Shown: positions 1-18,711 of the stretch, piece after piece
How positions within the stretch are numbered: the first letter of the stretch is position 1
Layout: every line of letters starts with the position of its first letter
NCBI GenBank assembly: GCA_038087875.1
Contig: CM075989.1
Location: 3,224,001 to 3,288,000 of the forward strand
Direction of reading: 5' to 3'
Source: Malacoraja senta
Taxonomy: Eukaryota
DNA length: 64,000 nucleotides
Position numbers and translations under genes: made by a program
The notes under the pieces: model-generated
Databases searched by the model: none
What the model saw: only the letters and a program-made list of their open reading frames with translations
What the model was told of the DNA's origin: nothing

Positions 1-2491
1 GGGAGGAGACCGGAGCACCTGGAGAAAACCCCACGCAGTCACAGGGAGAACGCACCAACGTTGTACAGACAGCACCCAAAGTCAGGAATGAACCTGGGTC
101 TATGGCACAGTAAGGCAGCAACTCTACCACTGCGCCACTGTGCTGCCCTTGAGTGGGAAGAATGAGGGGTGATTCTCCTGAAATATATATCAGGGTGGAT
201 GTTGATTCACTGGTGGTAGAGTCTTGAACATAAGGATATGAATTCAAGATAAGGGACTGGCCATTTAAAGCTGCGGTACATAGAAATATCTTTCTCGAGG
301 AGGGGGTGAATACGTGGAATCTTCTGCCCCAGACAGTTATGGATTCCAGCCTGTTAGAAATAGTTAACGTGAAGGTTTGTCTTCACTTCTTTAGAGAGAT
401 CGGGCGTTGAGTTGCTATGGGAATCTGACACAGAGGAGGAGTTGTAGCTGTGATGAATCAGCCATGATCGCCCTGAATGATGTTTTAATTTTTTAGTTTT
501 AGAGATACAGCGCGGAAACGGGCCATTCAGCCCATCGGGGTCTGCAATGACCAGCAATCCCTGCACATTAACACTATCCTACAGACGCTAGGGGCAATTT
601 ACATTTATCCCAAGCCAATTAACCTACAAGCCTACAAACCTGTACGTCTTTGGAGCATGGGAGGAAACCGGAGATCTTGGCGAAAACCCAGGTGGTCACG
701 GGGAGAACGTACAAACTCCGCACAGACAGCACCCGTAGTCAGGATGGAACCCGTGTCTCTGGTGCTGTGAGGCTGCAACTCTACCGCTGCGCCACCGTGC
801 CGCCCCAGTGGGGCAGGCTGGTTGATTCCTGCTCCCGTTTCCTTGCCTGCTTGTCAGAAATTTAGAAACAGATAATTAAAAGAAATAAAATGATTAATAA
901 AGTAAACTGATATTTTAACAAGTTAATTAAATACTCAAACGTGCCAAACAATTAATGAGGAATCTACATTAAATTAACGCAAAATATAATCAAACACTTA
1001 CCTTCTTCCACAGAGCCAGCAAAGCCACACAACCAGTCGACACAGGAACTGCAGATGCTGGTTTAAAAAAAAAAGACAGACAAAAATAGTGCTGGGGTAT
1101 CTCAGCAGGTTAGCCAGCATCTCTGGAGAAAAGGAATAGGTGATGTTTCGGGTCGAGACATTCACTGGAGAACATGGATAGGTGACGTTTCGGTTGGGAC
1201 CCTTCGCCAGATGATGCAAGTAAATAGTGTTGCTCTTTGTATGCCTGCTTTCCTGTCCTGAAGTGAGTGAGGGGACTGAGACTCCAGCATGTCTATGCTC
1301 CACTTCTTCTTCTCGAGTCCACATCAAGATTAGAAGTTGTCCAGCCAGAGCTGAACACACTTCTTGGCATCTGCATACAATGGTGTCTGTCTTGTCGCTT
1401 TTTGTGTGTGCTGGTGGAATCAGGGCCGCGACGTGAATGCTCTTTCCTTGACCCCTATGCTCCACTGCCAGGCTCAGTGGAGAGATGAGGGGCAGAGTTA
1501 GTCCCATAGCTACTGAGAGCCAAGAATGGAACACGCTATCAAAACATGGAGGGGACGGGGGACACAATTTTTTGTCGGCCGCGCGTGCATGCGCACACTC
1601 ACACACACACGCGAGGCTTCGGAGGCTCAATCCAGCGCTAAATGCAGCTCAACGCTGCCTGTCTCACCGGGTTAACTACAGCCCTGCCTGGACTGACGGG
1701 ACACCAGCAGTGCTTCTCCGCGCTGGCCATATTTCCCGCGTCCAGGAAGGCTATAGGCTCACCCGGTGGGACAGGCAGAGTTAGCTGGGTTTAGCGCTGT
1801 TTCTCTGCGCTGGATGTGGGCCTGGGGGGCACCGCGCCCGTCTGACTCCCGACCAAAGATCCTATAGCGGAGGATCTTTGCTGCTGACCTCTCCGGCCAC
1901 CCGTGGAAGGGGGGGGGCACTCGGGTAGGGACAGGACAGCGCCAGAGACCCGGCCGGGATCGATCCTGCCTGCGGATGAAGCGCAGGTCTATGCCACGTC
2001 TCCCTCCTCCAATCACCGCACTCTATCCTCAGGCCCACCCCCCCACTCCTCCCTCCTCCAATCATCGCGCTGAATCATCATGTCCCGCCCCTATTGCCTG
2101 CTGACTGACGTCTCTCTCGTCCAATCGGCTCCCTCGATCTTCAGTCCCACCCCCACTGCCTTGCGCAAAGCGGAGATTTCACCGGGTTTTAAAATACGGA
2201 TCACAAAAACTTGGGGGGACGTGTCCCCTCTGCCCCCCCCCCCCCCGGGTTTTCCGCCCCTGCTGAGAGCAGTGGTCAGCTCCATACAGGCCAGCATTTA
2301 GTTTTTAGTTTTAGTTTTAGAGATACAGCACGGAAACAGGCCCTTCGGCCCACCGGGTCCGCACCAACCAGCGATCCCTGCACACTAATACTGTCCTACA
2401 CATACTGGGGACAATTTACACTTATACCAAGCCAATTAACCTACATACCTGGACGTCATTAGAGTGTGGGAGGAAACCGAAGATCTCTGAG
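1..2491 (-). repeat. Inverted near-identical copy of 7196-9690
   Basis: Reverse complement of 1-2491 matches 7196-9690; the differences spotted are mostly homopolymer-length indels; the partner starts right at the N gap. Confidence 0.95.
1521..2262 (-). mobile_element. Non-autonomous hAT-like DNA transposon (duplicate of 7426-8168)
   Basis: 8-bp TSD CTGAGAGC at 1513-1520 and 2263-2270; CAGGGGCGG terminus on the minus strand. Confidence 0.75.
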
Positions 2492-6995: not shown

Positions 6996-7195
6996 NNNNN
7001 NNNNNNNNNNNNNNNNNNNNNNNNNNNNNNNNNNNNNNNNNNNNNNNNNNNNNNNNNNNNNNNNNNNNNNNNNNNNNNNNNNNNNNNNNNNNNNNNNNNN
7101 NNNNNNNNNNNNNNNNNNNNNNNNNNNNNNNNNNNNNNNNNNNNNNNNNNNNNNNNNNNNNNNNNNNNNNNNNNNNNNNNNNNNNNNNNNNNNNN
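6996..7195. other. Assembly gap (200 N)
   Basis: Run of N. Confidence 1.
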
Positions 7196-7425
7196 CTCAG
7201 AGATCTTCGGTTTCCTCCCACACTCTAATGACGTCCAGGTATGTAGGTTAATTGGCTTGGTATAAGTGTAAATTGTCCCCAGTATGTGTAGGACAGTATT
7301 AGTGTGCAGGGATCGCTGGTTGGTGCGGACCCGGTGGGCCGAAGGGCCTGTTTCCGTGCTGTATCTCTAAAACTAAAACTAAAAACTAAATGCTGGCCTG
7401 TATGGAGCTGACCCACTGCTCTCAG

Positions 7426-8168
7426 CAGGGGCGGAAAACCCGGGGGGGGGGGGGGCAGAGGGGACACGTCCCCCCAAGTTTTTGTGATCCGTATTTTAAA
7501 ACCCGGTGAAATCTCCGCTTTGCGCAAGGCAGTGGGGGTGGGACTGAAGATCGAGGGAGCCGATTGGACGAGAGAGACGTCAGTCAGCAGGCAATAGGGG
7601 CGGGACATGATGATTCAGCGCGATGATTGGAGGAGGGAGGAGTGGGGGGGGTGGGCCTGAGGATAGAGTGCGGTGATTGGAGGAGGGAGACGTGGCATAG
7701 ACCTGCGCTTCATCCGCAGGCAGGATCGATCCCGGCCGGGTCTCTGGCGCTGTCCTGTCCCTACCCGAGTGCCCCCCCCCTTCCACGGGTGGCCGGAGAG
7801 GTCAGCAGCAAAGATCCTCCGCTATAGGATCTTTGGTCGGGAGTCAGACGGGCGCGGTGCCCCCCAGGCCCACATCCAGCGCAGAGAAACAGCGCTAAAC
7901 CCAGCTAACTCTGCCTGTCCCACCGGGTGAGCCTATAGCCTTCCTGGACGCGGGAAATATGGCCAGCGCGGAGAAGCACTGCTGGTGTCCCGTCAGTCCA
8001 GGCAGGGCTGTAGTTAACCCGGTGAGACAGGCAGCGTTGAGCTGCATTTAGCGCTGGATTGAGCCTCCGAAGCCTCGCGTGTGTGTGTGAGTGTGCGCAT
8101 GCACGCGCGGCCGACAAAAAATTGTGTCCCCCGTCCCCTCCATGTTTTGATAGCGTGTTCCATTCTTG
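7426..8168 (+). mobile_element. Non-autonomous hAT-like DNA transposon with GC-rich interior
   Basis: Perfect 8-bp TSD GCTCTCAG (7418-7425, 8169-8176); CAGGGGCGGAAAAC left end and decayed right end GTGTTCCATTCTTG. Confidence 0.75.
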
Positions 8169-8233
8169 GCTCTCAGTAGCTATGGGACTAACTCTGCCCC
8201 TCATCTCTCCACTGAGCCTGGCAGTGGAGCATA

Positions 8234-8363
8234 GGGGTCAAGGAAAGAGCATTCACGTCGCGGCCCTGATTCCACCAGCACACACAAAAAGCGACAAGAC
8301 AGACACCATTGTATGCAGATGCCAAGAAGTGTGTTCAGCTCTGGCTGGACAACTTCTAATCTT
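8234..8363 (+). ncRNA. Decayed HDV-like ribozyme motif (also at 1326-1455 on the minus strand)
   Basis: P1 GGGGUC/GGCCCU, P3 GCA/CGC, L3 UUCACGU, P4 UCCA-CCAG-CACAC/GUGUG-CUGG-UGGA, J4/2 CUAA, short P2 AAGA/UCUU. Confidence 0.5.
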
Positions 8364-8885
8364 GATGTGGACTCGAGAAGAAGAAGTGGAGCATAGACAT
8401 GCTGGAGTCTCAGTCCCCCTCACTCACTTCAGGACAGGAAAGCAGGCATACAAAGAGCAACACTATTTACTTGCATCATCTGGCGAAGGGTCCCAAACCG
8501 AAACGTCACCTATCCATGTTCTCCAGTGAATGTCTCGACCCGAAACATCACCTATTCCTTTTCTCCAGAGATGCTGGCTAACCTGCTGAGATACCCCAGC
8601 ACTATTTTTGTCTGTCTTTTTTTTTTAAACCAGCATCTGCAGTTCCTTGTGTCGACTGGTTGTGTGGCTTTGCTGGCTCTGTGGAAGAAGGTAAGTGTTT
8701 GATTATATTTTGCGTTAATTTAATGTAGATTCCTCATTAATTGTTTGGCACGTTTGAGTATTTAATTAACTTGTTAAAATATCAGTTTACTTTATTAATC
8801 ATTTTATTTCTTTTAATTATCTGTTTCTAAATTTCTGACAAGCAGGCAAGGAAACGGGAGCAGGAATCAACCAGCCTGCCCCACT

Positions 8886-9208
8886 GGGGCGGCACGGTGG
8901 CGCAGCGGTAGAGTTGCAGCCTCACAGCACCAGAGACACGGGTTCCATCCTGACTACGGGTGCTGTCTGTGCGGAGTTTGTACGTTCTCCCCGTGACCAC
9001 CTGGGTTTTCGCCAAGATCTCCGGTTTCCTCCCATGCTCCAAAGACGTACAGGTTTGTAGGCTTGTAGGTTAATTGGCTTGGGATAAATGTAAATTGCCC
9101 CTAGCGTCTGTAGGATAGTGTTAATGTGCAGGGATTGCTGGTCATTGCAGACCCGATGGGCTGAATGGCCCGTTTCCGCGCTGTATCTCTAAAACTAAAA
9201 AATTAAAA
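8886..9208 (+). mobile_element. HE1-like V-SINE
   Basis: tRNA-like head, V-domain, CR1-like tail. Confidence 0.9.
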
Positions 9209-9543
9209 CATCATTCAGGGCGATCATGGCTGATTCATCACAGCTACAACTCCTCCTCTGTGTCAGATTCCCATAGCAACTCAACGCCCGATCTCTCTAA
9301 AGAAGTGAAGACAAACCTTCACGTTAACTATTTCTAACAGGCTGGAATCCATAACTGTCTGGGGCAGAAGATTCCACGTATTCACCCCCTCCTCGAGAAA
9401 GATATTTCTATGTACCGCAGCTTTAAATGGCCAGTCCCTTATCTTGAATTCATATCCTTATGTTCAAGACTCTACCACCAGTGAATCAACATCCACCCTG
9501 ATATATATTTCAGGAGAATCACCCCTCATTCTTCCCAACTCAA

Positions 9544-9838
9544 GGGCAGCACAGTGGCGCAGTGGTAGAGTTGCTGCCTTACTGTGCCATAGACCCAGGT
9601 TCATTCCTGACTTTGGGTGCTGTCTGTACAACGTTGGTGCGTTCTCCCTGTGACTGCGTGGGTTTTCTCCAGGTGCTCCGGTCTCCTCCCACACTCCAAA
9701 GACGTACAGGTTTGTAGGTTAATTGGCTTCGGTAAAATTGTCCCTGGTGTATAGGATAGTGTTAGTGTACGGGGTGATTACTGGTCGGCGTGGACTCGGT
9801 GGGCAGAAGGGCCTGTTTCTGCGCTGTATCTCTAAATA
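9544..9838 (+). mobile_element. HE1-like V-SINE
   Basis: Same head, body and tail as the other copies. Confidence 0.9.
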
Positions 9839-17540: not shown

Positions 17541-18084
17541 CCCTACCCAGTCATCAGAAAGACAATGCATGATTACAATCGAGCCATTTACTGTGTATGG
17601 ATACATGATAAGGGAATAACGTTTAGTGCCAGGTTAAGCTGTAAAGTTCGATCAAGATTAGTCCGAGGGTCACCAATGAGGTAGTTAGTAGTTCAGCACT
17701 GCTCTCTGGTTGCGGTTGGATGGTTCAGTTACCTGATATAAAGGGAATACGAAAGACTTAACCTGAGCCTTTCTCAGAGCTTGCAATCTAGTGTCACTTT
17801 GTCATCTCTCCGGGGGAATAATCGCTGTAAATGCAGCAAGGATTGTCCAAAGCACAGCACCCAGCGACTGTCAGCACAGACTGAGTCCAACGCTGATGAA
17901 ATCGTCTCATCCATCTCTCAGCATTCACATGTTCAGCACAAATTCCAATGACTGCGGTGTAAACAATTCTTAGATACAGATTCAATTTTGCATTAATAAT
18001 AGTTCACAAATCGGTCCAGGAGCGGAGATAACTTTTATCAGGAAATGAGACTTCCATAATAAGTCCGTGCTGTCAAACCAAGCA

Positions 18085-18345
18085 AGATAATGGGTTCAGA
18101 ATGGCAGGCAGTGAGTGACTAGTGGGGTACCACAGGGCTCGGTGCTGGGACCGCAGCTATTTACAATATACATCAATGATTTAGATGAAGGGGCTCAAAG
18201 TAACATTAGCAAATTTGCAGATGACACAAAGCTGAGTGGCAGTGTGAACTATGAGAATGCAGGGTGACTTGGTGAGTGGGCAGATGCAGTTTAATGTGGA
18301 TAAATGTGAGGTTATCCACTTTGGTAGCAAAAACAGGAAGGCAGT
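18085..18345 (+). mobile_element. CR1 LINE RT fragment
   Basis: [34 protein letters not shown]. Confidence 0.9.
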
Positions 18346-18367
18346 GTATCCCAACTACACTAGTCCC

Positions 18368-18453
18368 GGGGATCACGACAGAAGCCTCCTCGTGGTGATC
18401 CCCGGAAACGACAACACGATGCACTGTGTGATGCGTCGGGCGACCAATCTGTT
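18368..18453 (+). ncRNA. Predicted HDV-like self-cleaving ribozyme
   Basis: P1 GGGGAUC/GAUCCCC, P2 GACAGA/UCUGUU, P3 GCC/GGU, L3 UCCUCGU, P1.1 CC/GG, P4 CGAC/GUCG, J4/2 CCAA. Confidence 0.7.
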
Positions 18454-18518
18454 AACGTGTTGGACGACGACGGGAGCCAACAGCGAGCTATGGCGTCTTC
18501 TGACACACGAGCAAATGA
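18368..18518 (+). mobile_element. 151-bp retroposon headed by an HDV-like ribozyme (possibly Ingi/Vingi-related)
   Basis: Perfect 11-bp TSD ACACTAGTCCC (18357-18367, 18519-18529); CpG-rich insert. Confidence 0.8.
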
Positions 18519-18711
18519 ACACTAGTCCCACCTGCTTGCATTTGGCCCATATCCCTCCAAACCTGTGCAGGAAGGAACTGCAGATACTGGTTTAAACCGA
18601 AGATAGACGCAAAATGCTGGAGTAACTCAGCGGGACAGGCAGCCCCTCTTGTGAGAAGGAATGGGTGACGAAGGGCCTGTTCCTGTGCTGTACTGTACCA
18701 GTGGCAAAGCC

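Follow-up and report, generated by a model that had tools for sequence, protein, structure and literature searches.

Short retroposons that retain only the two ends of a long interspersed nuclear element (LINE), with a self-cleaving ribozyme of the hepatitis delta virus (HDV) type forming the 5' end, are known from trypanosomes and Drosophila. The NARTc and RIME elements of L1Tc/ingi consist of LINE 5' and 3' ends, their ribozyme cleaves at +1 and they are mobilised in trans (PMC3185411, PMC4035085). The short internally deleted elements (SIDEs) of Drosophila R2 join a ribozyme, shown to cleave, to the LINE 3' end through an internal deletion (PMC3414825). Two-ended derivatives are reported only from RTE, Ingi, Vingi and R2, for a reason stated as unknown, Vingi being represented by the Vingi-1_EE derivatives of hedgehog, SINE2-1_ACar and SINE2-1_AMi (PMC5786205). 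Short interspersed nuclear elements (SINEs) that use ribozymes are mentioned in general terms (PMC6765202). The element described here is a 151-bp insert at 18368-18518 in a 64,000-nucleotide stretch of Malacoraja senta contig CM075989.1 (the window), and it belongs to this known type. We are fairly confident that it is a non-coding two-ended derivative of a Vingi-type LINE, with an RNA that likely cleaved itself at its first base, G1, and was likely mobilised by the enzyme of the parent. It differs from NARTc and RIME in residing in an animal genome, in its length of 150 nt, in a parent without RNase H and in a cleavage that is predicted only, and the excerpts on those elements (PMC3185411, PMC4035085) do not report the end-to-end helix set out below. 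The R2 SIDEs are specific to rDNA and depend on a restriction-like endonuclease, whereas the family of the insert, termed family A, is dispersed, has 10-13-bp target duplications and derives from a parent with an apurinic endonuclease (APE) domain.

The arrangement of the insert, from the left to the right target site duplication, is as follows.

18357-18367, + strand: target site duplication, left copy, 11-bp ACACTAGTCCC.
18368-18454, + strand: HDV-like ribozyme fold, the entire 5' untranslated region (UTR) of the parent LINE; predicted cleavage immediately 5' of 18368.
18368-18403, + strand: P1 (18368-74 with 18397-403), P2 5' strand (18376-83), P3 and L3; within this segment P3 is 18384-86 with 18394-96 and L3 UCCUCGU is 18387-93.
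18404-18405, + strand: P1.1 GG, pairing with L3 CC 18388-18389; 97.5% paired in 20 copies.
18406-18443, + strand: P4 domain, CGAC 18409-12 pairs with GUCG 18435-38 in an uncertain register; the domain is stronger in subfamily A2.
18444-18447, + strand: J4/2 CCAA; C18444 is the predicted catalytic cytosine, at a position common to 11 related elements and the Rfam alignment.
18448-18454, + strand: P2 3' strand, decayed in the window copy (one U lost, one C-to-U).
18457-18490, + strand: remnant of the LINE open reading frame (ORF) start; the parent ATG reads GTG in the window copy.
18458-18469, + strand: predicted 5' strand of the end-to-end helix, partner 18494-18505.
18491-18493, + strand: junction at which the deletion joins the LINE 5' end to its 3' end.
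18494-18518, + strand: LINE 3' end, with the 3' strand of the end helix (18494-18505), stop TGA (18501-03), an ACACGA motif and a short tail.
18519-18529, + strand: target site duplication, right copy, 11-bp ACACTAGTCCC.

The insert interrupts a common host repeat. In 13 cases among the fetched loci the host repeat runs uninterrupted with the motif ACACTAGTCCC present once, so the perfect 11-bp repeat that an earlier note had described from the letters of the window is a true target duplication. The CpG richness that it remarked on also holds, with an observed/expected ratio of 1.23 compared with 0.55 and 0.35 in the 1-kb flanks. The 1.94-Gb genome contains 837 candidates for family A, and all 40 that were scored match it, at 88-92% apart from the self match. 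Exact words of the family occur 312 times for a 5' 19-mer and 165 times for a 3' 20-mer (reversed controls, 0), confirming a family of at least 312 copies of which the window insert, 91.9% identical to the family majority, is one decayed copy. The expectation that copies would share a 5' end at GGGGATC is borne out: of 50 distinct copies in the alignment, on average 93.7% identical to the majority, 45 start at position 1-2; a 10-13-bp duplication with at most one mismatch ends directly before G1 in 27 of the 37 testable copies. The stretch is also matched in runs of seven organisms (16 runs with at least half the words), and 112 and 117 contigs of two organisms other than the best-matching one switch to unrelated flank at the same 5' point. 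Subfamily A2, comprising seven of 48 copies, carries U36 (pairing as G1.U), G41, G49 and CAA in J4/2; its P4 is the stronger at -15.5 kcal/mol, compared with -9.4 kcal/mol for the main form, and its junction is two bases shorter.

The fold is a nested double pseudoknot with a 7-bp P1, P2, a 3-bp P3, P1.1 and P4, and 95.9% of the cells are paired across 20 copies. P1 is formed with a pair probability of 1.0 whether or not the flank is included, and the family majority has the catalytic core letters UCCUCGU in L3 and CCAA in J4/2. Every pairing listed in the earlier note is found at its place, with C18444 being the C four bases before the 3' strand of P2, and several of its details apply to this copy rather than to the family. 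Its P2 and P3 are those of the window copy; the family has an 8-bp P2 (UGACAGAA/UUCUGUCA) directly on P3 and a P3 of GCC/GGC, from which the GGU of the window copy is a C-to-U change. The extra A between P2 and P3 is present here because one U has been lost, and other copies are without it. In addition to the changes in the 3' strand of P2 the window copy has a U-to-C in the 5' strand, and with its P2 thus damaged it is probably a weak or dead ribozyme. The G1-C pair, listed as a caveat, is the common form: of 48 copies, 34 carry C and 13 carry U at position 36, and a subfamily is distinguished by the G1.U wobble. In the window copy an alternative P2 can indeed form around 18498-18502, through a G-to-T change, and it was rejected as confined to that copy and weaker than the regular P2 (-4.1 compared with -6.6 kcal/mol). 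A kink-turn considered for the P4 junction is unsupported, its key A being altered in A2.

The parent LINE accounts for the whole of the short element. Six of the first 30 loci carrying the exact 3' 20-mer are LINE 3' ends. Among 40 such LINE loci, L100, at 2535 bp, combines the two ends of the short family with an 11-bp duplication. L127 does likewise, and in all the autonomous-type LINE with both ends that the earlier note had asked for is present in L100, L127, L129, L130, L132 and L133. A search with the APE start of L100 yields 15 matches, with the head intact in five of the ten fetched. The short element is the first ~124 nt of the LINE fused to its last ~25 nt with no other bases. In five of five LINE heads the ATG lies at element position 91, two bases past P2, and in L127 and L133 it is in frame with the APE domain. 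The term SINE-sized used for the insert is thus apt for a short, non-coding element, which however has no separate head: it is a deletion derivative of SIDE type, and the LINE ORF start makes up the 30 nt past the ribozyme. No tRNA gene is detected in the insert by ARAGORN, in agreement with the claim that a tRNA head is lacking, the head being the LINE 5' UTR. Target duplications are 9-13 bp in most LINE copies where they were found and 10-13 bp in short copies. The parent is ~3 kb long with a single ORF in which Pfam identifies APE and reverse transcriptase (RT) domains and no RNase H match, a layout that is also that of Vingi (single ORF, APE and RT, no RNase H, about 3 kb; PMC13708176). 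Its 128 relatives at E <= 1e-50 are mostly single-ORF proteins of 900-1050 amino acids from sea urchin, lancelet, fish, insects and Anolis, and the parent shares 46% identity with an Anolis protein that has this layout. The parent therefore appears to be of Vingi type, a clade placement based on this layout and on the named Vingi 5' ends discussed below. Vingi-like ORFs are also present in L138 and L139, where long 5' UTRs look structured and fail the HDV descriptor.

Related elements extend the fold beyond family A. Among 80 loci sampled from metagenome contigs, 19 have an N-terminus and five of these, from three families, show the fold upstream of the related ORF, compared with 0 of 190 shuffles. 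Element L146 is complete, and its 14-bp duplication ends at the first base of the fold. The Rfam CPEB3 ribozyme model gives 39 matches over cut-off in the own genome and none over cut-off in 14 control prokaryotes, and 30 fetched matches resolve into five more families, B-F. Family B, younger than A, includes full 3.1-kb LINEs (L251, L253, L254, L256) with 11-12-bp duplications, near-intact ORFs and heads reaching 64 bits on the CPEB3 model. Families C, D and E are mostly 5'-inverted heads of Vingi-type LINEs, with D also present as a 253-bp two-ended copy, and family F is a ~175-bp two-ended element without P4. At the start of L259 (G000:C8:937600-937800) the 5' portion of the ribozyme of family B is tandemly repeated ahead of a full element. 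In inserted copies of family F (L236, L238, L242-L245) the first letters are four G, so that the predicted 7-bp P1 starts one base outside the copy and its first pair would come from the flank. In L161:77-149 and L174 the P4 junction has the form AGUA/GAA, resembling a loop-E motif.

The pairings are maintained between families. In 11 elements 188 of 198 cells are paired and 10 of 18 pairs show double changes, compared with a mean of 142 paired cells when the 3' halves are permuted (0 of 2000 permutations reach the observed value). P2 and P1.1 covary although the Rfam model does not score these pseudoknot pairs, and the catalytic-core letters (L3 U/C/G, P1.1, the C and AA of J4/2) are kept in all 11 parsed elements while the stems vary. 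These counts come from a descriptor parse, used in place of an RNAalifold analysis that gave P1 and P3 only, MAFFT having misaligned P2 and P4 of the divergent heads. The covariation that the earlier note called for is thus present between families. Within family A none exceeds that of shuffles (137 of 500 equally high), as expected of copies that decay neutrally.

A further structural feature joins the two ends of the RNA. The 12-base segment that opens with the ATG pairs in family A with a 12-base segment around the stop codon (95% paired, 20 copies), and a helix of 8-12 bp between the bases just past the ribozyme and the 3' end is predicted in seven of eight families (A, B, C, D, E, F and L146), including cases where the strands lie 3 kb apart. 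The helix sequences differ by family, while the helix starts 2-5 nt past P2 and ends just before an ACACGA-type motif. When 5' and 3' strands of the seven families are permuted, one of 5040 assignments reaches the summed energy, and it is the true one; of 100 windows inside the family A LINE none pairs equally well. The same region is indicated by eight inverted insertions that lie between target duplications (three from A, five of the 13 examined from C-E): the inverted piece is the head, ending 14-46 nt past P2, and the short-family junction lies ~35 nt past P2. The C-E loci had been chosen for their heads, no target duplication was found around the other eight of these 13 inverted heads, and one of the A inversions (L107) is internal. 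The clustering of inversion ends past P2 is accordingly treated as a lead, one that fits a helix holding the post-ribozyme region beside the priming site. The inverted head of L090 runs out exactly at G1, which bears on the position of the RNA 5' end.

These features can be combined in a mechanism. HDV-like ribozymes cut 5' of P1 using the first C of J4/2 (PMC10879173), and in the insert the ribozyme would cut just before G1 with C18444 as the catalytic base. In support of this, sister heads reach as much as 64 bits on the model of CPEB3, a ribozyme of experimentally demonstrated activity. Cleavage would free the RNA from a longer transcript, either of the host or self-started, and the shared ends imply that the endonuclease-RT of the parent would copy it in trans by target-primed reverse transcription. 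The helix would join the post-ribozyme bases to the last ~25 bases so that the enzyme may recognise both ends, and may make a deletion or a second priming event more likely immediately downstream. In this way the end helix is a candidate reason for two-ended Vingi derivatives.

Several observations weigh against this account. All parent LINE copies examined are broken. The folding z-score of the whole insert is weak at -1.64, which also cautions against over-reading, the window copy fails the strict HDV pairing descriptor, and an Rfam scan of the window yields no match at cut-off, the insert scoring 20.2 bits on the CPEB3 model (cut-off 35) and 17.9 bits on HDV-F-prausnitzii; family A as a whole reaches 20-26 bits on the HDV-type models. 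J4/2 is CAA instead of CNAA in the seven A2 copies, and the catalytic C is preceded by five bases that do not pair, leaving the register of P4 and J4/2 unsure. To these is added the lack of covariation within family A. The test on 11 elements is partly circular because the parse used a pairing descriptor and B-F were found with a covariance model, and L142, L164 and L173 have nearly the same core. The windows for the end helix were set after the pattern had been seen; wider windows give 7 of 720 for six families, and L173, a separate clade in the RT tree (a quick tree, with a D row unusable as it had picked up an unrelated RT), has no end helix, its inclusion giving 3 of 40320.

The most substantial rival, which we regard as unlikely, is that an internal Pol II promoter starting at G1 sets the 5' end, with the fold aiding the promoter or serving another job such as cap-independent translation start, exonuclease protection or protein binding. 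The start at G1 is compatible with either promoter or cleavage, the first 77 nt of L1Tc (Pr77) are both promoter and ribozyme (PMC3185411), and a parent ATG two bases past P2 is what a translation role would predict. Against this rival, the catalytic-core letters are retained in every parsed element while stems change, and in a tRNA-headed alligator SINE with an internal Vingi head L3 and P1 are altered, as if cleavage had to go (PMC5786205). It is more improbable still that the parent ribozyme is real and the short family is a passive, recurrent deletion product that was never its own master element. The two junction variants, A1 and A2, and the recurrence of Vingi heads of 100-135 nt in inverted insertions do indicate that the parent readily makes such products; against this, the short copies have a junction in common together with diagnostic changes that the LINE lacks (TTG vs TTA and one GAC-A shift), they are more numerous than LINE heads (837 candidates, against 15 matches to the LINE APE start), and the changes of A2 at 36, 41, 49 and J4/2 are linked. 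A chance fold in an ordinary Pol III SINE, for which the weak z-score and the sub-threshold Rfam matches of the window copy could be cited, is hardly credible given the lack of a tRNA gene, the two LINE ends that account for every base and a descriptor matched by none of the 190 shuffles. Self-cleavage at G1 of a two-ended Vingi-type derivative is the preferred explanation.

Elsewhere in the 64-kb window no Vingi ORF was found, RT matches being weak only. A decayed CR1/L2-type RT fragment lies in the upstream flank (18060-18345, same strand) and is a possible read-through source. Two copies of family F, a second two-ended Vingi-type element, at 1305-1455 (- strand) and 8234-8384 (+ strand), have an 11-bp duplication and a P4-less HDV-like head, which is damaged here. 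Segments 1-2491 and 7196-9690 form a 2.5-kb inverted duplication with 99.7% identity beside an N run (6996-7195), which may be an assembly artefact.

The sister families also show a close similarity to the mammalian CPEB3 ribozyme (Rfam RF00622). The fold is the same and families B-F score over its cut-off; CPEB3 is a single intronic copy with a one-pair P1.1, in contrast to the two-pair P1.1, longer P4 and lower scores of family A. Comparison by eye of the family D majority with the Rfam consensus gives ~59 of 67 identical positions, including all 14 P4-stem bases, together with a compensatory change in P2, whereas P4 varies freely among B, C, E and F. Heads with the mammalian consensus P4 stem are found at L229:1500-1568 (- strand) and in L246-L250, all of family D. 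The 5' ends of Vingi-2_Gav, Vingi-4_Crp, Vingi-2_SPur and Vingi-1_BF are printed in the supplement of PMC5786205, and all four read as the same HDV-like fold; sister heads match Vingi-1_BF and Vingi-2_Gav, and in the shown positions Vingi-2_Gav differs from the CPEB3 consensus at two, outside the P4 interior. In SINE2-1_AMi of alligator the P4 stem is that of CPEB3, and a short end helix precedes the tail. In the excerpts of PMC5786205 Vingi is not listed among the ribozyme clades and CPEB3 is not mentioned, and the words 'origin', 'transpos' and 'mobile' do not occur in a paper on CPEB3 evolution (PMC8233481). The human genome contains a Vingi fossil, X12_LINE (PMC5753468). This similarity suggests that the CPEB3 ribozyme descends from a Vingi head. 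We lean, with less confidence than for the insert itself, towards the wider reading that the Vingi clade is headed by CPEB3-type ribozymes, that a helix clamps the RNA ends and explains the two-ended derivatives, and that a Vingi 5' end was domesticated as the CPEB3 ribozyme of mammals, which has been tied to memory. HDV-like ribozymes are already known from sea urchin, lamprey and lancelet (PMC8256844), and some of them may be such Vingi heads.

The literature searched, largely in excerpt and with patents and bioRxiv supplements outside its scope, contains no family A, Vingi ribozyme, end helix or Vingi origin of CPEB3. The insert and its relatives extend ribozyme-headed SIDEs to Vingi, a clade not listed as ribozyme-bearing in the excerpts examined. 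The end helix offers a possible mechanism for two-ended derivatives and, with it, a minimal template of 150 nt; gene writing with Vingi-1 places both UTRs on the template and, unusually, the native 5' UTR on the driver, and names ribozymes for R2 only in the available excerpts (PMC13708176). The near-identity of CPEB3, including its freely variable P4, with heads found here and with published crocodilian Vingi ends would provide a nameable donor for the CPEB3 ribozyme.
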